Source: a virus (taxonomy: Duplodnaviria; Heunggongvirae; Uroviricota; Caudoviricetes). From it: a stretch of DNA of 14,243 nucleotides. Within the stretch, counting starts at the first letter, position 1. Every line of letters starts with the position of its first letter. This document shows, one piece after another, positions 66 through 14,243 of this stretch. Where the stretch lies: the IMG/VR virus record IMGVR_UViG_2698536676_000001, one strand, 5' to 3'. The notes beneath the pieces were generated by a model. The model was not told where the DNA came from and did not search any database. It was given only the letters and a program-made list of their open reading frames with translations. The position numbers and the translations under genes are program-made.

Positions 66-93
66 GGCCCGCTATCGGGCCTTAATTTTTACT
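66..93 (+). terminator. Rho-independent terminator-like hairpin (GGCCCG-CTAT-CGGGCC) followed by T-rich tract; sits at a probable boundary between lambda-derived DNA and unrelated DNA
   Basis: Perfect 6-bp GC stem with 4-nt loop at 66-81, then TTAATTTTTACT on the plus strand; on the minus strand the same hairpin directly follows the TAA stop of the 826-aa ORF. A plus-strand reading frame ends at TGA 58-60 just upstream. Confidence 0.4.
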
Positions 94-2562
94 CTGGTTT
101 TTGTGGCCATTCAGGATTTGCCGTATCCACACGGCTGACCAGAACACTGTAGCGTTACGGGCCATGTCATACACTGCCTTCATCATCTGTGGACCTGGCA
201 GACCATTCGTACCGTCGTTCTGAATCACCACGTGATTGTTCTGATTAAAATTAATGCCTTCCGCCCGCCGCATCTGCGCCGGACTTCCGGCACCGCCCAC
301 ATAACCACCTTCCGCATAGCCGCGCATCAGCCGGTAGAGATTTCCCACGCCAATCCGGCTGGTTGCCTCCTTCGTGAAGACAAATTCACCACGGTGAACA
401 ATCCCCGCTGGCTCATATTTGCCGCCAGTTCCCGTAAATCCCCCGGTCGCAAAATGGAATTTTGCCGCAGCAGCCTGAATGGCTGTACCGCCTGACACTG
501 ATGCGCCACCACCGGCAGCACCGCCAATGGCGCTGCCGATACTCCCGACAATTCCCACCATTGCCTGCTTAAGCAGAATTTCTGTCATCATGGACAGCAC
601 GGAACGGGTGAAGCTGCGCCAGTTCTGCTCACTGCCGGTCAGCATCGCCGCCATATTCTGTGCAATACCATCAAAGGTCTGCGTGGCAGCACTTTTAACC
701 TGCGACATACTGTCCGTGGCGCTCTCTTTCCACTCACTCCAGCCTGACCTGAGGCCTGCCATCCAGCTCCCGCGAAGCTGGTCTTCAGCTGCCCAGGTCT
801 TTTTCTGCTCTGACATGACGTTATTCAGCGCCAGAGGATTATCGCCATACTGTTCCTTCAGGCGCTGTTCCGTGGCTTCCCTCGCTGCCTGCCGGTCAGT
901 CAGCCCCCGGTTTTTCGCATCAATGGCGGCCCGTTTTGCCCGTTGCTGCTGTGCGAATTTATCCGCCTGCTGTGCCAGCGCGTTCAGGTGTTCCTGATAG
1001 GTGACCTTGTCGCCAAGTGCAGCCAGCTGGCGTTTGTACTCCAGCGTCTCATCTTTATGCGCCAGCAGGGATTTCTCCTGTGCAGACAGCTGGCGACGTT
1101 GCGCCGCCTCCTCCAGTACCGCGAACTGACTCTCCGCCTTCCACAAATCCCGGCGCTGCTGGCTGATTTTTTCATTCGCTCCACTATGCTGCTCAAGCAT
1201 TTTTAGTTCAGCTTGTAACGCAAGAAGAGCTGCATGTGCTCGATCTTCCTGACGCTCTCCCGCAGCGGACTGCTTCGGCTTTTTCAGCGTCGCTTCATAG
1301 TCCTTTTTCGCCGCCGCCATCAGCGTGTTGTAATCTGCCTGCAGGATTTTCCCGTCTTTCAGTGCCTTGTTCAGTTCTTCCTGACGAGCGGTATATTTCT
1401 CCAGCGGCGTCTGCAGGCGTTCGTAAGCCTTCTGCGCCTCTTCGGTATATTTCAGCCGTGATGCCTCAGACTCGGCCCAGTCCTTTGCTGCCATCTCTCT
1501 GGCCTTTTCAAGATCGGCCTGCAACGTGGCGGCTGAAAGCCCAAGTTGCGCATTCGCTCTGTCCTCCCATGCTCCCCGGAGATTGGCAAGAAATGCTGAG
1601 GTTTTACCGCGCCGGTGGCTCCGGCTCTGATACCACTGCCATTTTTTGTCCGCCTCATCAAAAGCCTTTTCTGCTTTCTCCAGCATTCCCTGGGCAGTGT
1701 CCGGGCGACCAATATCCAGCACCGCATCCCACATGGATTTGAATGCCCGTGCTGTCCTGTCTGCCCAGGTCTCCAGCGTGCCCATGTTCTCTTTCAGGCG
1801 GAGGGTCTGGTCATCAAACCCTTTCGTTGCGGCCTCGTTCGCCGCCTGCAATGCCCCGGCTTCATCTCCGGAACGCTGCAACTGAGCAACATACGCAATC
1901 TGCTCCGCCGTCACGTTATGGAACTGACGTGCCATCGCTGTCAGTCCCGACGTCGGGTCTGTGGTCAGCTTCCCGAAGGCTTCAGCGACCTTGTCCACCT
2001 CCACGCCGGATGCAGAGGAGAAACGCGCCACACTCTGGCTGATCGCCTCAAACTGCTCACCACCACGCACACCGGCATTCACCAGCGCCGTCAGTGACTC
2101 GCTGGTCTGGTTAAACGTCAGCCCTGCCGCCTGCCCGGCTCTGGACAGGACCAGCATACGATCTGCCGTCAGTCCCGCCTGATTGCCGGAAAGGACCAGC
2201 GTTTTGTTGAAATCGGACAGGGTTGAGTTGCCCTGATACCAGGCATACGCCAGCGCACCGGTCGCCACCGCCAGCGAGGTGGCCCCCACCATCGGCAGGG
2301 TGATCGCACCGGCAAGCCCCCTGAACATGGGGATCATCCCGCCGAAGGAGTCCTTCACCTGACCACCCTGTTGCAGCAGGATCAGCCACGGACTTTGCCC
2401 GCCTGCAAGCTGCGTGGCCACGTCAGTGAACTGTGCAGGCAGCATACGCATGGCGGCTTTATACTGTCCGACGGAAATGGCCATTGCGGCGGCACCGGGC
2501 ACCGCCGTTCTGCTGATACGGCTGAGGTTTTCAACGGCCTGCTCAAGACCTTTTATGGCCAT
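82..2562 (-). CDS. H: Tail tape measure protein, chimeric: N-terminal ~29 aa of lambda tail completion protein Z fused in frame to lambda H (tape measure) from about H residue 47; C-terminal ~24 aa appear unrelated to H
   Basis: 826-aa ORF. N-terminus MAIKGLEQAVENLSRIS.TAVPGAAAMAI matches the remembered start of lambda gpZ; from ISVGQYKAAMRMLPAQFTDVATQLAGGQSPWLILLQQGG onward it follows lambda gpH (coiled-coil middle, Gly-rich hydrophobic segment, FATGGFTGTGG motif). GGGGGA Shine-Dalgarno 5 nt upstream of ATG; 11-nt gap to FII as for lambda FII-Z. Confidence 0.85.
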   Translation of the reverse strand: MAIKGLEQAVENLSRISRTAVPGAAAMAISVGQYKAAMRMLPAQFTDVATQLAGGQSPWLILLQQGGQVKDSFGGMIPMFRGLAGAITLPMVGATSLAVATGALAYAWYQGNSTLSDFNKTLVLSGNQAGLTADRMLVLSRAGQAAGLTFNQTSESLTALVNAGVRGGEQFEAISQSVARFSSASGVEVDKVAEAFGKLTTDPTSGLTAMARQFHNVTAEQIAYVAQLQRSGDEAGALQAANEAATKGFDDQTLRLKENMGTLETWADRTARAFKSMWDAVLDIGRPDTAQGMLEKAEKAFDEADKKWQWYQSRSHRRGKTSAFLANLRGAWEDRANAQLGLSAATLQADLEKAREMAAKDWAESEASRLKYTEEAQKAYERLQTPLEKYTARQEELNKALKDGKILQADYNTLMAAAKKDYEATLKKPKQSAAGERQEDRAHAALLALQAELKMLEQHSGANEKISQQRRDLWKAESQFAVLEEAAQRRQLSAQEKSLLAHKDETLEYKRQLAALGDKVTYQEHLNALAQQADKFAQQQRAKRAAIDAKNRGLTDRQAAREATEQRLKEQYGDNPLALNNVMSEQKKTWAAEDQLRGSWMAGLRSGWSEWKESATDSMSQVKSAATQTFDGIAQNMAAMLTGSEQNWRSFTRSVLSMMTEILLKQAMVGIVGSIGSAIGGAAGGGASVSGGTAIQAAAAKFHFATGGFTGTGGKYEPAGIVHRGEFVFTKEATSRIGVGNLYRLMRGYAEGGYVGGAGSPAQMRRAEGINFNQNNHVVIQNDGTNGLPGPQMMKAVYDMARNATVFWSAVWIRQILNGHKNQSKN

Positions 2563-6118: not shown

Positions 6119-9093
<2,975 letters not shown>

Positions 9094-9131
9094 GTCCTCC
9101 TGAAAATTACCTCATGACCAGAAATCAACAC

Positions 9132-10202
9132 TTACCCCCTGAAGCCCGGTGGAATTTCGGTATCCGGTTCAGAAATATGATTCACACAACGCTGGTTGTT
9201 CGTGCCGCTTACCGGGAGCAGCCAGGGGTTTTCAAAATTCCGGTCCGGTCCAAAAAACGTCGTCGCTCGCTGAACAAATTCCGTTCCCGTTTTCCCGGTA
9301 GCCGCAAGGTATCTTGCGTAACGCCTCACGCCATCCAGCATGGCCTCTGGTGACACCCCCTCGCGTAATCTGGCCTTCCAGGCACTGAAAGCGGATTTCT
9401 TCGGGTTTGCCCCAGCACGCAACGGGTATTCCCGCCAGACCTGTTCGAACACATCCGGATAATCCACTCGTCTCACAGGCTGCCCGGTGTTTTCCGTGAC
9501 TACCCGATCGGCTTCCCGCTGAATGGCGGAATCGGCTTCAGGCTGCTGCAGTTGGTGTGATTGCTCCGGCCTTGCGGTCATCACCTGCTGCACAGCGCCC
9601 GAATCGGCTTTCAGCGCATACGCTGAATCGGCTTCCGGTGTCGTGCCTGCTGGCTGACCAAGATTGACGGTCTGAACATCCCCTGCCTGGTTCGTGGCGT
9701 TTTTTACGCCATGGACCATAGTGTTTTGATCTTCTTGATCTGTATCTTTATCTGTATCTTTATCTGTCGTGACTCGTCGTGACATGTGCGTGACATTTCG
9801 TGACGCGCCGTGACAATCGCCATTTTGTTCCCGCTTTCTTTCCCTCTCTCGCTGCGCCCTCTTGCGCTCTGCAGGAGATTTTGCGGTTTGCGAAATATTG
9901 CCGTTGTCCTCTTTAAGCACCTGGCGTTTTTCCCATCCAGTGATTAAATCACCATCAAGTACCCGCCCCTGCATCGTCTGCAAAATTGAATCAATTACCT
10001 CTTCTGTCACGTCGAGCGCACTTGCCAAATCTTCTGTCGTGACATCAATGTGACCTCGCGTGACATTTCGTGACGCGCTCACCAGGAGGTGGATATACAC
10101 TGCCATCACTGTTGCAATTGACTGCCCTGACACCCTGGCAATTGTTCGCCACTTAGGGTCATTTGGCATGTCATGCCATAATCTGAGCCAGGCGTTAGCC
10201 AT
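9132..10202 (-). CDS. Phage replication initiation / replisome organiser-like protein (Rac/e14 type), with internal iteron-encoded linker
   Basis: 356 aa from ATG at 10202 (GAGGTG Shine-Dalgarno; the track's 10208 is a GTG two codons upstream). N-terminal region MANAWLRLWHDMPNDPKWRTIARVSGQSIATV... looks like a DNA-binding domain; low-complexity acidic linker (DKDTDKDTDQED); position directly downstream of cro and ydaT-like genes. Family assignment is from gene context and memory, not a search. Confidence 0.6.
   Translation of the reverse strand: MANAWLRLWHDMPNDPKWRTIARVSGQSIATVMAVYIHLLVSASRNVTRGHIDVTTEDLASALDVTEEVIDSILQTMQGRVLDGDLITGWEKRQVLKEDNGNISQTAKSPAERKRAQRERERKREQNGDCHGASRNVTHMSRRVTTDKDTDKDTDQEDQNTMVHGVKNATNQAGDVQTVNLGQPAGTTPEADSAYALKADSGAVQQVMTARPEQSHQLQQPEADSAIQREADRVVTENTGQPVRRVDYPDVFEQVWREYPLRAGANPKKSAFSAWKARLREGVSPEAMLDGVRRYARYLAATGKTGTEFVQRATTFFGPDRNFENPWLLPVSGTNNQRCVNHISEPDTEIPPGFRG
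9739..9815. repeat. Iteron-like array 1: 2.5 tandem copies of 12-bp TCTGTATCTTTA followed by five CGTGAC repeats at 10-11 bp spacing
   Basis: Direct reading: tandem unit at 9739-9750 and 9751-9762 with a partial third copy; CGTGAC at 9768, 9778, 9789, 9799, 9809. Lies inside the replication gene. Confidence 0.6.
10038..10078. repeat. Iteron-like array 2: four (C/T)GTGAC repeats at 10-11 bp spacing, sharing an exact 21-bp segment GCGTGACATTTCGTGACGCGC with array 1
   Basis: CGTGAC at 10038, 10059, 10069 and TGTGAC at 10049; the 21-mer at 10058-10078 is identical to 9788-9808. Confidence 0.6.
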
Positions 10203-10273
10203 ACTCACCTCTTCTGATACCGAATCTTTTTACTCACGAGTTGCCGGAAGTGATTCGATATGGCTATTATCAC

Positions 10274-10699
10274 TCAATGCACTGCCACAGCATTTCCTGC
10301 CGGGCCACCACGGTTCATCTGATTGAAACCGGCGATTGCCACTGCGACAAAATCATCAGCGTCTCTCACCAGTCGCTCCCGCGTCTCCACCAGCTCCCGA
10401 AAATAAGCTGAACTGTGGCTGCGCATTCTGGCCACCAGCAAAGGTGGCATTGCCTTTTCGATCGCTGGTAACAACGCCTGAATTTTTTCAACTGCATCAG
10501 GGGTGTCTTTCTCTATCCAGCGGAAAATTTTCTGGGTATTGCGAGCCAGGGCTTCCGGATGGCTGTCGTCATACAGTTCTGGGAACGTCATACCCAACTC
10601 AAAATAAGCCTGGGTTATTCCAGCTGCTGGAACTTTTTCGCCATCAGGACGCGCCCAGGCATTCATCGCCATGCGGATGTGTTCATGCTTGATTTTCAT
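10274..10699 (-). CDS. YdaT-like prophage regulatory protein (CII-position protein of Rac-type immunity regions)
   Basis: 141 aa, begins MKIKHEHI and ends ...AVAVH, resembling remembered Rac YdaT termini; start codon overlaps the stop of the upstream cro-like gene (ATGA), implying translational coupling. Confidence 0.6.
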   Translation of the reverse strand: MKIKHEHIRMAMNAWARPDGEKVPAAGITQAYFELGMTFPELYDDSHPEALARNTQKIFRWIEKDTPDAVEKIQALLPAIEKAMPPLLVARMRSHSSAYFRELVETRERLVRDADDFVAVAIAGFNQMNRGGPAGNAVAVH

Positions 10700-10926
10700 G
10701 AATCCCCCCCTTGGTTAGAAGGCGGATTATGATCAGAACCGGGAATGACAACCGTCGGTATGTGTAACTCATATTTGAGCGCCCCGGCAGTGACTGCCTG
10801 AATTAGCAACGCCCATTTCCACGGAACCTCTTCCCCCCACATGCTGACTGTGGTTTTTGACGTTCCTAGAGCTGCGGCTGTTTTAACAACTCCGCCAAAA
10901 TAGCCTAATACTTCTGATTTTTTCAT
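10696..10926 (-). CDS. Cro/YdaS-like HTH DNA-binding protein (lytic-side repressor)
   Basis: Start placed at internal MKKSEVLGYFGGVVKTAAALGTSKTTVSMW (76 aa) because GGAG lies 8 nt upstream; helix-turn-helix signature; divergent from the CI-like gene across an operator-containing intergenic region. Confidence 0.65.
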   Translation of the reverse strand: MKKSEVLGYFGGVVKTAAALGTSKTTVSMWGEEVPWKWALLIQAVTAGALKYELHIPTVVIPGSDHNPPSNQGGDS

Positions 10927-11017
10927 GAGTCGCTCCATAAAACTGAACGCCAAAAGTTTAATAATCAAAACCAAAGAAAGTCAAGAAACAAAACCATCTG
11001 TGTTTTAAAATCAAAAC
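10927..11017. promoter_or_regulatory. Divergent immunity control region (OR-like): two 18-bp operator-like sites plus candidate PR-like and PRM-like promoters
   Basis: Related sites AGTTTAATAATCAAAACC (10955-10972) and TGTTTTAAAATCAAAACA (11001-11018), each TGTTTT-N6-AAAACA-like and 15/18 identical. Minus-strand TTGACT -35 at 10979-10984 with a -10 overlapping site 1 (cro side). Plus-strand TAAAAT -10 at 11006-11011, immediately before the cI-like ATG (repressor side). Confidence 0.45.
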
Positions 11018-11656
11018 ATGAGCAAGCAAACAATATCTGAACGCATAACCCAACGTATGCATGCGCTAAACCTGAAAGGCAAAGACCTTGTCAATGCCAC
11101 TGGCGCATCAAAAGGCTCCGTAAGTCAATGGATGAACGGTGGAGGAGCGCCGTCCTCGCGTTACATAAGTTCACTGGCAAAGATATTGAAAGTAAACGAA
11201 AATTGGCTTCTTAATGGAGGAGAGTTAAATACAGGTGATTCGCTTGATCTATCTTTACCGCCGATAAAAACGGTTCCGCTACTATCACTTCAGCAGGCAG
11301 CAAGCTGGAGTGATTATATGAAAAATTCCTCAATAACCTCTTGTGTGCAGCTTGTCGGAGAAATCCCGGCCAATACCTTTGCAGTTGTTCTAGAGAGTGA
11401 CAGTATGTCAACATCTGGTGGGGGAGTTTCCATCCCAAATGGTTCAACAGTTTTTGTTGATCCCGATCGAACCGTACAACCAGGAAATATTGTCCTTGCC
11501 TTACCCAAAGGGACCACAACACCTGTCATTCGTAAACTGGAGATAGAAGGGCCGGATATTCTTTTAGTCCCCACGAATCCTCGCTACCCTTCAATTATGC
11601 TGGATGATCTATCTTGCATATTGGGCGTATGCTTTAAAATTCAACAAGATATTTAA
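11018..11656 (+). CDS. CI-like prophage repressor, HTH (XRE) N-terminal domain plus S24 LexA-like peptidase C-terminal domain
   Basis: 212 aa; HTH in ATGASKGSVSQWMNGGGAPSSRYISSLAKIL; S24 signature with Ser in LESDSMS and Lys in VIRKLEIEG; divergent from the cro-like gene; no Shine-Dalgarno upstream. Confidence 0.85.
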   Translation: MSKQTISERITQRMHALNLKGKDLVNATGASKGSVSQWMNGGGAPSSRYISSLAKILKVNENWLLNGGELNTGDSLDLSLPPIKTVPLLSLQQAASWSDYMKNSSITSCVQLVGEIPANTFAVVLESDSMSTSGGGVSIPNGSTVFVDPDRTVQPGNIVLALPKGTTTPVIRKLEIEGPDILLVPTNPRYPSIMLDDLSCILGVCFKIQQDI

Positions 11657-11722
11657 CCAACCTCATCTATTTGATTAACTGTATGCCATCGTGGTGATGG
11701 CTTAACAGCTGCCTGCTTAAAA

Positions 11723-11769
11723 TGTTTTGATAAAAAAACATTGACCTGTAAAGTTCATTTTTCTAAACT
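11723..11769 (+). promoter_or_regulatory. PL-like promoter with adjacent operator-like site driving the downstream ydfA-dicF-dicB operon
   Basis: TGTTTTGATAAAAAAACA (11723-11740, same TGTTTT-N6-AAAACA outline as the OR sites) directly abuts a TTGACC -35 (11741-11746), 17-bp spacer, TAAACT -10 (11764-11769). Confidence 0.4.
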
Positions 11770-11948
11770 TCATTCATTCCCTCACTCCACCCCACAGAAT
11801 GCAGGGCAATACTTCGAGTTACCCGGCAGTGGTCAGGGGTTAAGTAGCCAGCCCGAGGCGTAAGAACATGACGGCAGGGTTCAACTTTAATAACTATGCA
11901 GCAGGTTTTTGTTCCGCTACCCCGGCGTTAAGGGGAAATGAGGTCAAC

Positions 11949-12101
11949 ATGGATACTATCGATCTTGGCAACAACGAATCTCTGGTGTGCGGCGTGTTTC
12001 CCAACCAGGACGGCACGTTCACCGCGATGACGTATACCAAAAGCAAAACGTTTAAAACCGAAGCTGGCGCGCATCGCTGGTTAGCAAGAAACTCTGACTG
12101 A
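11949..12101 (+). CDS. ydfA: YdfA-like small protein (first gene of dicBF-type operon), function unknown
   Basis: 50 aa from ATG 11949 (GAGG 6 nt upstream): MDTIDLGNNESLVCGVFPNQDGTFTAMTYTKSKTFKTEAGAHRWLARNSD, resembling remembered Qin YdfA. A longer 77-aa form from 11868 is possible but has a weaker ribosome-binding site. Confidence 0.55.
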   Translation: MDTIDLGNNESLVCGVFPNQDGTFTAMTYTKSKTFKTEAGAHRWLARNSD

Positions 12102-12112
12102 TGAGGTTGACG

Positions 12113-12751
12113 ATGGAATTTAAAGATTTACCTACTTCAATCCAGGAGATTGCAGCACACACACTTCGTCATCGTCTGAACGAACTTGCATTGGAATCGG
12201 TAACGAAAAAAGACACTGATAATATGGCTCGTAATGTGCGCGATGCGTTTACCGGATTGTATTTCTGTGCGTCTGTAAATAAACACGACTCAGATAGTGT
12301 GGCAAATAAAATTGCAGAAACGACAGCGCAAAACATCAATACGAAACCAACGGAAGAAGAAATTGATCAGTTTGCTCATGATGCTGGTTTAAAAAACAAG
12401 AAAGAAAAATCGCCATATGCGGGGAACATGTTTGTTTATGACAATCTCATCAGAATTCGTGGCGAAATTCCGGCGGAATACCTGGCAAGAGTCCATCAGG
12501 CATTGCTTAAAAATCTGGAAACAGAATTATTTGATGGCAACACTAACGGTTTCTTCATGGTATCAGGCCTTGAGAAAGACTGGGATGCAGAAAAACGCTG
12601 GAATGTTGCCACATGGTTATTCAGTAACAGAGCCGCTGCCCTGGAAGCTTCGGCATGTATTTGCGGCCTGTTCTTAACAGACCACAAATATAATCTGGAT
12701 GTGTACAGTTATATTTACGCTGAACACGGTCCGCTCTGGATTGACTGGTAA
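12113..12751 (+). CDS. Uncharacterised 212-aa protein in the early operon; no recognisable catalytic or transmembrane motifs
   Basis: ORF track 12101-12751; start preferred at MEFKDLPTS (ATG 12113, GAGG 6 nt upstream). The alternative ATG at 12101 overlaps the ydfA-like stop (TGATG). AT-rich codon usage distinct from the lambda head block. Confidence 0.6.
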   Translation: MEFKDLPTSIQEIAAHTLRHRLNELALESVTKKDTDNMARNVRDAFTGLYFCASVNKHDSDSVANKIAETTAQNINTKPTEEEIDQFAHDAGLKNKKEKSPYAGNMFVYDNLIRIRGEIPAEYLARVHQALLKNLETELFDGNTNGFFMVSGLEKDWDAEKRWNVATWLFSNRAAALEASACICGLFLTDHKYNLDVYSYIYAEHGPLWIDW

Positions 12752-12961
12752 TTATAAGGAAACACCAGCAGGGCCGAGGCGACCAACTGAACGATTAAAA
12801 TCAATAATGCCATTATAAAGGACATTATTTAATTTATCGTCGAATGCTGATTCTGTGAGCCTCAACTCTGAATGAGTTTTTAATAACCCTGATTGCCTGA
12901 GTTGATTTACCAGGCATTCAATCTGTTTTTCAATAAGCGGATTTCTTTTTTTGTTTGGCAT
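12752..12961 (-). CDS. Possible convergent small protein (69 aa), hypothetical
   Basis: Minus-strand ORF MPNKKRNPLIEKQIECLVNQLRQSGLLK... with GGAGG 6 nt upstream of the ATG at 12961; its stop abuts the stop of the 212-aa gene. Could be a spurious ORF in AT-rich DNA. Confidence 0.3.
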   Translation of the reverse strand: MPNKKRNPLIEKQIECLVNQLRQSGLLKTHSELRLTESAFDDKLNNVLYNGIIDFNRSVGRLGPAGVSL

Positions 12962-13296
12962 TTTATCCTCCATTGAGGTTCTGGGTTAAAAATGGAGACC
13001 AACACGCTGCCACGTGTGGTCGTGCGCCGGACACGGATAAGAATCCGGTACTGACAGTTTACTGAAAGGATATATCCCTGAAAAGCCAGGGCATAACGCG
13101 AAAGCGCACGGCGAAGTTCGTCTCACTGTACGGTGTCGTTAAATTTAATTCGACCGTGCGCTTCCGGTTGTGGCACTCCGCGAAATGGCGCGGCGGTAAG
13201 TATGGCGGGGTTATTCCTCCCCCATTGAGACACCGGGTTGCCAGGTTGACCATACGCTTAAGTGACAACCCCGCTGCAACGCCCTCTGTTATCAAT

Positions 13297-13349
13297 TTTC
13301 TGGTGACGTTTGGTGGTATCAGTTTTACTCCGTGACTGCTCTGCTGCCC
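13297..13349 (+). ncRNA. dicF: DicF small RNA homologue (antisense regulator of ftsZ and other mRNAs)
   Basis: TTTCTGGTGACGTTTGGTGGTATCAGTTTTACTCCGTGACTGCTCTGCTGCCC followed by TTTTT matches the remembered 53-nt DicF of Qin, with two substitutions in the terminal stem that keep pairing as G-U wobbles. Confidence 0.75.
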
Positions 13350-13359
13350 TTTTTAAAGT

Positions 13360-13505
13360 GAATTTTGTGATGCGGTGAATGCGGCTGAGCGCACGCGGAA
13401 CAGTTAAAACCAAAAACAGTGTTATGGATGGGTTCTCTGTATCCGGCGTTAATTGTTAACTGGTTAACGTCACCTGGAGGCACCAGGCACCGCATCACAA
13501 AATTC
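13360..13505 (+). promoter_or_regulatory. Long inverted repeat: perfect 18-bp arms (13360-13377, 13488-13505) flanking 110 bp; probable RNase III processing stem between dicF and dicB
   Basis: GAATTTTGTGATGCGGTG and its exact reverse complement CACCGCATCACAAAATTC; the interior holds a GTTAAC-TG-GTTAAC palindrome. Lies between the DicF terminator and the dicB ribosome-binding site. Confidence 0.6.
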
Positions 13506-13523
13506 ATTGTTGAGGGTGCGATA

Positions 13524-13712
13524 ATGAAAACGTTATTACCAAACGTTAATACGTCTGAAGGTTGTTTTGAAATTGGTGTCACTATCAGTAACCCAGTATT
13601 TACTGAAGATGCCATTAACAAGAGGAAACAAGAACGGGAGCTATTGGATAAAATATGCATTGTTTCAATGCTGGCCCGTTTACGCCTGATGCAAAAAGGA
13701 TGCTGGCAATGA
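13524..13712 (+). CDS. dicB: Cell division inhibitor DicB (MinC-activating)
   Basis: 62 aa MKTLLPNVNTSEGCFEIGVTISNPVFTEDAINKRKQERELLDKICIVSMLARLRLMQKGCWQ matching remembered Qin DicB; GAGGG 7 nt upstream of ATG. Confidence 0.85.
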   Translation: MKTLLPNVNTSEGCFEIGVTISNPVFTEDAINKRKQERELLDKICIVSMLARLRLMQKGCWQ

Positions 13713-13912
13713 ATACTACATTTGCACTTGTTCTGACGGTTTTTCTTGTTTCCGGTGAACCGGTTGACATGGTTACTGGCGTATACGGCTCAATGAAAGA
13801 ATGCATGGTTGCCGCAGTGGAACAGAAAATTCCCGGTAACTGTTATCCGGTCGATAAAGTTATTCACATGGATAATAACGAAATCCCGGCAGGACTTAAA
13901 ACAGCACCGTAA
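13709..13912 (+). CDS. ydfD: YdfD-like small membrane protein (reported lysis-inducing protein in Qin)
   Basis: 67 aa from ATG 13709, overlapping the dicB stop as ATGA: MNTTFALVLTVFLVSGEPVD...; hydrophobic N-terminal segment; resembles remembered YdfD. Confidence 0.6.
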   Translation: MNTTFALVLTVFLVSGEPVDMVTGVYGSMKECMVAAVEQKIPGNCYPVDKVIHMDNNEIPAGLKTAP

Positions 13913-13992
13913 TTAATATCCGGTTTCATTTTTATATGCCAGCAATGGCAGGGATTTGTTCACCCTTAAATCTGTAATGAGGTTAAAACAAA

Positions 13993-14243
13993 ATGAGTAA
14001 AGTCTTTATTTGCGCCGCTATTCCTGACGAACTGGCAACAAGGGAAGAAGGCGCTGTGGCTGTAGCCACAGCCATTGAAGCTGGCGACGAACGCCGTGCT
14101 CGAGCAAAATTTCACTGGCAATTCCTGGAACATTATCCGGCTGCTCAGGACTGCGCTTATAAATTTATTATCTGCGAGGATAAGCCCGGTATACCCCGCC
14201 CTGCCCTCGATTCCTGGGATGCTGAATATATGCAGGAAAACCG
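13993..14243 (+). CDS. ydfE: YdfE-like protein, 5' part only (ORF runs off the window end)
   Basis: Open frame from ATG 13993 (GAGG upstream) with no stop to the window end: MSKVFICAAIPDELATREEGAVAVATAIEAGDERRARAKFHWQFLEHYPAAQDCAYKF...; resembles the gene following ydfD in Qin. Confidence 0.55.
   Translation, partial: MSKVFICAAIPDELATREEGAVAVATAIEAGDERRARAKFHWQFLEHYPAAQDCAYKFIICEDKPGIPRPALDSWDAEYMQEN

Follow-up and report, generated by a model that had tools for sequence, protein, structure and literature searches.

A candidate iteron origin nested within the replication-initiator gene of a defective lambdoid prophage

The DNA considered here, the 14,243-nucleotide caudoviricete record IMGVR_UViG_2698536676_000001 (the whole of this stretch is hereinafter the window), is part of a defective lambdoid prophage of Escherichia coli inserted beside potC. 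Its early region encodes, in order, a CI-like repressor, a Cro-like protein, a CII/YdaT-like protein, a replication initiator and then a stub of a DUF977 gene. The initiator gene, an open reading frame (ORF) of 356 amino acids (aa) on the minus strand with its ATG at 10202, is intact: residues 1-356 of its product align with positions 1-356 of the 356 in phrog_3729, annotated as 'replication initiation protein' (E 1.5e-255). Within this gene lie two helically phased arrays of a short direct repeat, a solitary inverted copy, an A+T-rich tract and a hairpin (Table 1), which together probably form a replication origin embedded in the gene for its own initiator.

Read on the plus strand, array B comprises CGTGAC at 9768, 9778, 9789, 9799 and 9809 (spacing 10, 11, 10, 10), and array A comprises (C/T)GTGAC at 10038, 10049 (here TGTGAC), 10059 and 10069 (spacing 11, 10, 10); on the sense strand the unit is GTCACG. 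The initial annotation of this DNA had listed these nine units as two clusters with 10-11 bp spacing, along with an exact 21-bp block shared by the clusters about 270 bp apart and a 12-bp tandem repeat encoding DKDTDKDTD, and all of these are indeed present. The block, GCGTGACATTTCGTGACGCGC, occupies 9788-9808 and recurs 270 bp away at 10058-10078, where no such recurrence is expected by chance; the tandem, TCTTTATCTGTA, is repeated 2.9 times at 9733-9767, and its minus strand encodes ...TTDKDTDKDTDQ... A tenth unit, absent from the earlier list, reads GTCACG on the plus strand at 10006-10011 and is inverted with respect to the others, which brings the count within the gene to 5 + 4 + 1. Array A and the inverted unit share the core of array B and lie 220-270 bp upstream of it. 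The earlier placement of the repeats in the interdomain linker of the protein stands for array B (9768-9814) and the 12-bp repeat; it does not stand for array A, which lies in codons 43-55 of the N-domain, corresponding in the structural model to the end of the third helix and the succeeding loop.

Table 1. Coordinates of the features of the candidate origin, its initiator gene and the adjoining gene stub.
Feature	Position	Strand	Remarks
Initiator gene	9132..10202	-	Predicted winged-helix N-domain, basic helix, linker carrying the putative origin, C-terminal domain, DnaT-like tail
Array B, core iterons	9768..9814	-	Five GTCACG; gene nucleotides (nt) 389-434; spacing 10, 10, 11, 10; linker codons
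Array A, accessory iterons (putative)	10038..10074	-	Four GTCAC(G/A); gene nt 129-164; spacing 10, 10, 11
Single inverted iteron	10003..10011	+	TGTCACGTC; ~30 bp downstream of array A in gene orientation
Candidate DNA-unwinding element	9724..9767	-	A+T-rich, purine-rich on sense strand; directly after last iteron
Inverted repeat (hairpin)	9688..9718	.	Flanks the A+T tract on the side away from the iterons; 13-pair stem (terminator-like scan)
Basic helix, codons 111-119 (ERKRAQRER)	9846..9872	-	Co-varies with iteron class; candidate iteron-reading element
DnaT-like tail, last 22 residues (..VNHISEPDTEIPPGFRG)	9135..9200	-	Resembles the E. coli DnaT C-terminal tail
DUF977 stub, first 38 codons	8978..9091	-	RefSeq annotation of identical stretch; Pfam DUF977 positions 1-38/134

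The successive cores are translated as A-S-R, V-T, G-H and V-T, such that all three reading frames are used. When the protein was held fixed and its codons were resampled from local usage, 2.3 +/- 1.35 GTCAC pentamers were expected in the gene as against the 11 observed, with a maximum of 8 in 5000 trials, and a phased chain of at least four arose with P = 4e-4. Likewise, no pentamer chain of at least four at 10/11-bp spacing emerged from 2000 codon permutations of the gene, as against the actual chains of five and four. Across the window as a whole, the frequency of YGTGAC is not unusual (21 found versus 14 expected); it is the clustering and phasing that are. Further, arrays A and B are the only clusters of at least three GTCAC pentamers within 24 bp, both in the window and in the 46-kb genome of the complete phage Tritos, whose initiator gene is 99.6% identical to that of the window.

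For comparison across the family, we used 79 homologous genes, including that of the window, gathered by searching phage genomes with tblastn and by scanning bacteria at one genome per species; these show 34-98% identity in the N-domain, and relatives were found in prophages of many Proteobacteria. (Scanning IMG/VR with the N-domain recovered only 99-100% identical E. coli copies, which are unusable for divergence tests.) At the linker position of array B, 67 of the 79 genes have at least three pentamers at 10/11-bp spacing, with a core that varies by clade: GTCAC(G), (C)GAACGC, GTAACGC, GCAACG(C) or (T)GACGC. Measured with no spacing filter, the distance between successive cores is 10 bp in 154 cases and 11 bp in 31 for GTCAC, and 10 bp in 71 cases and 11 bp in nine for AACGC, the remaining distances being mostly 20-22 or 30-31 bp. 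The homologues of Aeromonas pAEv1818 and Pseudomonas phi1, at about 70% identity, have both GTCAC arrays at unchanged positions in the gene; farther out in the family, the linker position is occupied by arrays of GAACGC, GTAACG, GCAACG or GACGC. Of the 79 genes, 35 have array A, and in 33 of these the array A pentamer also turns up at least three times where array B lies in that gene, compared with 4% of cross-class control pairs. For a comparison of codon positions, we used 23 homologues that keep the GTCAC arrays.

These 23 homologues come from Enterobacterales, Pseudomonas, Bordetella, Aquitalea, Chromobacterium, Gilvimarinus and two phages. Among them, the third codon positions of the array A cores have an entropy of 0.10 bit versus 1.37 outside the cores (Mann-Whitney p = 1.9e-5), and the residues encoded between the cores vary. 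Similarly, the inverted unit is kept as GACGTGAC in about 19 of the 23, its Val codon being GTG wherever the V-T dipeptide is present. Given the use of three frames, the count of 11 versus 2.3 and the frozen synonymous positions of the cores, these sequence comparisons indicate that the repeats are constrained as DNA and not as protein. In some clades, an extra array of the same class is expanded or occupies another N-domain loop, and the same peptide results; 'LSRNVTVGHV' in Xanthomonadales, six copies in E. albertii and separately inserted arrays with GTAAC or GCAAC cores are examples. Since these extra arrays occupy differing loops and yet bring the same peptide, the DNA array drives the peptide, rather than the reverse. 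Peptides such as SRNVT-GH arise wherever loop arrays land (loci L142, L146, L148, L150 and L152, at gene nt ~75-107, and L092, L119, L127 and L144/L147 of our set).

Directly past array B lies the tract that we consider a candidate DNA-unwinding element. It contains three copies of the 12-bp tandem in its sense-strand form, ACAGATAAAGAT (9733-9767), and its G+C fraction dips to 0.33. The 40-mer at 9724-9764 has a duplex stability of -44.7 kcal/mol versus a mean of -58.6 (standard deviation 4.5), making it the least stable of the gene and the second least stable in the 14.2-kb window. A comparable tract of 30-45 nt follows array B in every clade, most often starting 3 nt past the last core; it is purine-rich on the sense strand, with a hexamer rhythm (CAGATAAAGATAAAGA..., CAGATACAGATACAGA... 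or TAGAGAAGAGGAGAG...). In the meta-profile of the family, an A+T excess over the gene mean of +0.17 to +0.24 is seen at 0 to +50 nt past the last iteron and is about zero elsewhere. Within the tract, codons for D, K and E end in A or T at a frequency of 0.67 as against 0.45 in the rest of the gene (50 of 62 loci; Wilcoxon p = 3e-8), and AGATAA is translated in two frames, GAT-AAA and ATA-AG(x). The rhythm AGATAA / AGATAC / AGAGAA is itself conserved over 66 homologous loci in the same 0 to +50 nt interval, and the initiator could bind this motif in its single-stranded form.

The hairpin beyond the tract folds as single-stranded DNA with an energy of -8.7 kcal/mol (z = -3.3). Many homologues have a hairpin 36-85 nt past the last iteron, and the folding-energy meta-profile of the family shows a trough from +36 to +48 nt, with a mean of -5.2 kcal/mol and z about -0.8. 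In many cases the hairpin at the equivalent place is G+C-rich, e.g., CCCCCCTACCCCCC...GGGGGG or TCTCTCTCTCCTGACGGAGAGAGAGA. The origin of phage lambda, ori-lambda, likewise has an inverted repeat beyond its A+T-rich tract. No DnaA box was found in the origin region, which is neutral for its reading as an origin rather than a negative. A promoter-like match at 9790-9817, where the iterons resemble TTGACA, was rejected as not above chance. Elsewhere in the middle of the initiator gene, (A/G)ATCGGCTT occurs four times (at 9506, 9530, 9602 and 9626, within 9506-9634) as pairs with copies 24 bp apart, which encode EADS/EADR repeats; this count was reached in 17 of 200 shuffles of the whole window and is not clearly above chance.

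Turning to the initiator protein, an AlphaFold2 model of residues 1-130, built from a 40-sequence alignment of homologous proteins all of at most 226 aa (predicted local distance difference test score 81), has three helices, a loop at 46-55, a helix-turn-helix, a wing, a disordered stretch and a basic helix at 110-126. On this model the N-domain is predicted to be a winged helix resembling the N-terminal domain of DnaD, this domain and the staphylococcal plasmid initiator RepA being its closest matches of low root-mean-square deviation. The window protein matches PHROG families with the annotation replisome organizer or DnaD-like loader (E 1e-5 to 1e-62), and the lambda O family of Pfam, Phage_rep_O, does not match it at either E <= 0.01 or E <= 5. 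When the N-domain alignment was used as a profile against PDB sequences, no match emerged. We observed that the basic helix varies along with the class of iteron, RKRxQR accompanying GTCAC and R[ASVT][KR]x[WYHF]R accompanying xAACGC. In Fisher tests, whose values are inflated by shared ancestry, helix and iteron class are associated at 24/1 against 0/16 in clade I (WLRLWHDMP-type; p = 1.6e-10) and at 13/1 against 0/6 in clade II (WFRWHHG-type; p = 1.8e-4). Such a pattern is as expected for a cognate pair of protein and site. A mutual-information scan for specificity residues in the helix-turn-helix had its top columns in the loop encoded by array A and in residues 100-109.

At the other end of the protein, the last ~17 residues (SEPDTEIPPGFRG) are nearly identical to those of DnaT (SEPDSQIPPGFRG). 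A phmmer search of PDB sequences recovered the DnaT chains 6aep, 2ru8 and 9zbt (E 1e-3 to 5e-3), with the C-termini of the two proteins aligned end to end, and RefSeq names some variants 'DnaT-like ssDNA-binding domain-containing protein'. Membership of the DnaT family itself can be ruled out: the NCBIfam DnaT model aligns only its last 24 positions, with residues 333-356, at 18.3 bits versus a cutoff of 201 (E 0.0014). This resemblance suggests that host proteins for replication restart or helicase loading may dock on the tail; a function of the DnaT tail is not mentioned in the sections consulted of a paper on DnaT (PMC13377028). The DnaT-like tail is found in only a few loci, and with a crude detection of loaders (tblastn with five reference proteins) it showed no clear link to the lack of such a gene. 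By eye, a homologue from an Aeromonas phage (L003) apparently contains a whole region resembling the DnaT C-terminal domain.

The initial annotation took the replication partner genes to have been deleted from this prophage, a supposition that the intact relatives contradict. An intact prophage at the same potC site in strain 504838 encodes a protein identical to that of the window (WP_001394176.1), and in both this prophage and Tritos only a DUF977 gene follows the initiator gene; neither the 56 annotated genes of Tritos nor the intact potC-site prophage include a helicase or helicase-loader gene. In the window itself, only the DUF977 gene is truncated after the initiator. Nor would the origin depend on an initiator supplied in trans, the gene for it being intact here. 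Distant relatives have diverse partners, as judged from record annotations and family scans: a DnaC-like loader in the Aeromonas phage, a primase-helicase in Pseudomonas phi1, and DnaB in Ralstonia and in a cyanophage.

Taking these features together, we propose with reasonable confidence that the region from ~9688 to 10078 is a vegetative (theta-type) iteron origin embedded in its own initiator gene. The best explanation of its parts is that array B and the purine-rich A+T tract form the core, flanked by the hairpin, with array A and the inverted unit as accessory sites. An iteron origin within the initiator gene that includes the A+T-rich 12-bp repeat, as in lambda, had been suggested at the outset, and the comparative evidence now strongly supports it as a candidate. 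Briefly, we advance the following plausible mechanism. The initiator would bind GTCACG via its N-terminal part, namely the DnaD-like winged helix and the succeeding basic helix; the 10-11 bp spacing of the units would place protomers side by side on one face of the DNA, forming a short filament on array B. The A+T tract, ~3 nt past the last unit, might then melt under negative supercoiling and the rightward early transcription passing through the gene, and the host DnaB helicase could be loaded at the tract through the C-terminal part of the initiator, for which the DnaT-like tail provides a lead. Loading would have to use host proteins because the intact relatives encode neither helicase nor loader. 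Array A and the inverted unit might serve as accessory sites by looping, cooperative loading or control of the level of the initiator.

Several points weigh against this proposal. No array of at least three exact pentamers was found in 12 of the 79 homologues. The association of helix and iteron has two exceptions (L115 and L165, among loci L091-L170), could reflect linkage inasmuch as the helix codons are 20-60 nt from array B, and has the inflation by shared ancestry noted above. The composition of the A+T tract may be partly protein-driven, charged linkers being purine-rich for coding reasons. As for the fold, a Foldseek search against the PDB gave no significant match, PF09681 matches residues 5-122 over its positions 1-118 of 121 with only 13.4 bits against a cutoff of 23.3 (E 0.08), and TIGR01714 is similarly below threshold (16.2 bits against 49.8; E 0.009). 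Finally, we found no experiments in the literature in which any family member had been assayed for binding, unwinding or autonomous replication.

Among the alternatives, the arrays might bind the initiator for regulation only, as a roadblock or in autorepression or titration, with the origin lying elsewhere. The known inhibitory roles of plasmid and lambda iterons give this idea some precedent (PMC3349717), and array A, being absent from over half of the homologues and lying within domain codons, does look dispensable for a core function. However, array B is near universal, the least stable DNA of the gene follows it by ~3 nt in every clade, the A/T-biased synonymous codons of the tract are the signature of an unwinding element rather than of an operator, and there is no other motif cluster in the genome of a complete relative; we therefore regard a purely regulatory role as unlikely. 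Recognition of the repeats by some other factor, such as the CII/YdaT-like regulator, the DUF977 protein or a host protein, seems to us quite improbable. It draws on the genes for DUF977 and YdaT-like proteins flanking the initiator gene in E. coli and on the tetramer direct repeats 10 bp apart that are recognized by lambda CII. Yet the inspected Aeromonas and Pseudomonas phages with the same arrays have a DnaC-like loader or primase-helicase as the annotated downstream gene in place of DUF977, the class of the iteron follows the initiator's own helix in two clades, arrays of 4-6 units exceed a CII-type site, and one conserved host factor cannot account for at least five different cores.

There is also the prosaic explanation that the repeats are a by-product of coding, reflecting a duplicated peptide, ASRNVT, or a low-complexity acidic linker with no function at the level of DNA. 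The 21-bp block does stand in the same frame in both arrays, thereby encoding ASRNVT twice, the 12-bp repeat does encode DKDT repeats, and charged linkers are common. Nevertheless, the cores run through three frames, their synonymous positions are frozen while the intervening residues vary, their count is far above the protein-fixed expectation, other clades have the array in a different loop with the same peptide, and AGATAA is read in two frames, all of which renders this explanation highly improbable.

A simple specificity code is suggested by cores that are particular to each clade and a helix that varies with them, and from such a code one could predict where prophages would compete for one another's initiators and where they would be blind to them. 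More speculatively, one may envisage a self-sufficient one-protein module unlike that of lambda, wherein the basic helix, next to a DnaD-like winged helix, reads the 6-bp core, protomers bound one per helical turn build a continuous filament that runs into and opens a conserved purine tract of the (AGATAA)n type, the host helicase is recruited directly and without a phage loader, perhaps by mimicry of the DnaT tail, arrays spread repeatedly into surface loops encoded by the initiator's own gene, and core and helix switch together; we hold this extended scheme to be possible but doubtful. Were it true, the switching of core class along with the helix would define replication-specificity or incompatibility groups among co-resident prophages. 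Defining the origin would also offer a testable model for lambdoid phages with a single-gene replication module.

With respect to distribution, about 38% of complete E. coli genomes (2036 of 5426) carry the origin segment (9690-10090), in up to four copies per genome, and the multi-copy genomes could be used for testing incompatibility. The gene carrying it is usually annotated just as 'hypothetical protein' or 'DnaT-like'; a variant of ~85% identity in O157:H7 is among those annotated DnaT-like.

The prophage in the window has undergone evident decay. The intact relatives have the DUF977 gene directly after the initiator gene; here its stub is fused by deletion to the middle of the gene for the large terminase gpA (7900-8979), of which only the GpA_nuclease domain remains. 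The junction lies at ~8972-8980, homology to intact prophages ending at about 8972-8978 of the window, and the deletion took away the nin region, the Q antiterminator, the lysis genes, the small terminase and the N-terminal part of gpA. The initiator gene and the putative origin are intact despite these losses, so that a defective prophage keeps both in the chromosome, and the origin could fire on derepression. In an 826-aa ORF (82-2562, minus strand), residues 3-36 match minor tail protein Z and the sequence from residue 24 on matches the tape-measure protein, a pattern that points to another internal deletion, in which the tail-tube genes were lost and gpZ became joined to the tape-measure gene. 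The chromosome NZ_LR883050.1 (L002) is 100% identical over 7000-14243 of the window. There, a truncated S49 protease gene is directly followed by a truncated tail-tip gene, and at the same place the window encodes the full 484-aa protease followed by homologues of D, E, FI and FII; the window hence seems to stem from a different, less deleted copy of the prophage. As to the regulatory genes, RefSeq annotates the Cro-like gene (10683-10974) as frameshifted in an identical stretch, and annotates only the C-terminal 112 aa of the repressor (11018-11656), which in the window is an uninterrupted ORF of 212 aa with residues 2-211 matching a repressor family.

Elements of this kind are well known, and for this family of initiators we found no prior description of an origin, nor anything relevant in the literature on the motif. 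A similar setting is that of the lambdoid phages with one-gene modules: in a 2025 survey, phage LLS and 34 of 314 Enterobacteriales lambdoid phages had such modules, in which the gene for an origin-binding protein stands without one for a helicase or loader, their replication being described as 'not yet understood' (PMC12315714). Tritos and the intact potC-site prophage fit this description. LLS itself is absent from the DNA and protein matches, and its protein is described as a homologue of lambda O, which the window protein is not.

The likeness to lambda O and ori-lambda, and to the Shiga toxin phages 933W and P27, lies in the layout: the origin is in the middle of the initiator gene, with an array of repeats and then an A+T-rich unwinding tract (PMC7466680), and in lambda too it is part of the early rightward operon, after cro and the cII-like gene. 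The details differ in several respects. In lambda, an origin has four to six iterons, each of them a 19-bp imperfect inverted repeat (PMC7466680), whereas the window has a 6-bp direct-repeat core every 10-11 bp, with a second array within the codons for the DNA-binding domain. The initiator of the window is from a different protein family, lacks a P-like partner gene, and has a basic helix as its proposed reading element. For the idea that the origin acts as a titration or incompatibility site, the lambda precedent comes from work with plasmids, where oop transcription was also needed (PMC3349717).

Parallels also exist with a Bacillus phage and a staphylococcal plasmid. In the Bacillus phage SPP1, oriL lies within gene 38, with AB boxes bound by G38P beside an A+T-rich unwinding element, the initiator likewise lacks an AAA+ domain, and there is a second binding region, oriR (PMC5737612). 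The window protein has weak matches along its full length to the 'phage replisome organizer N-terminal' models, which are below threshold and do not establish homology to the SPP1 type. SPP1 differs in encoding its own helicase, G40P, and loader, G39P; in the window the two repeat clusters lie 270 bp apart in a single gene. The third parallel is Rep of pSK41 (RepA_N family), whose Rep boxes are within the initiator gene (PMC5703833), the comparison being one of layout. pSK41 is a staphylococcal plasmid (Firmicutes) and its Rep has no detectable sequence similarity to the window protein; the C-terminal domain of this Rep recruits the DnaG primase.

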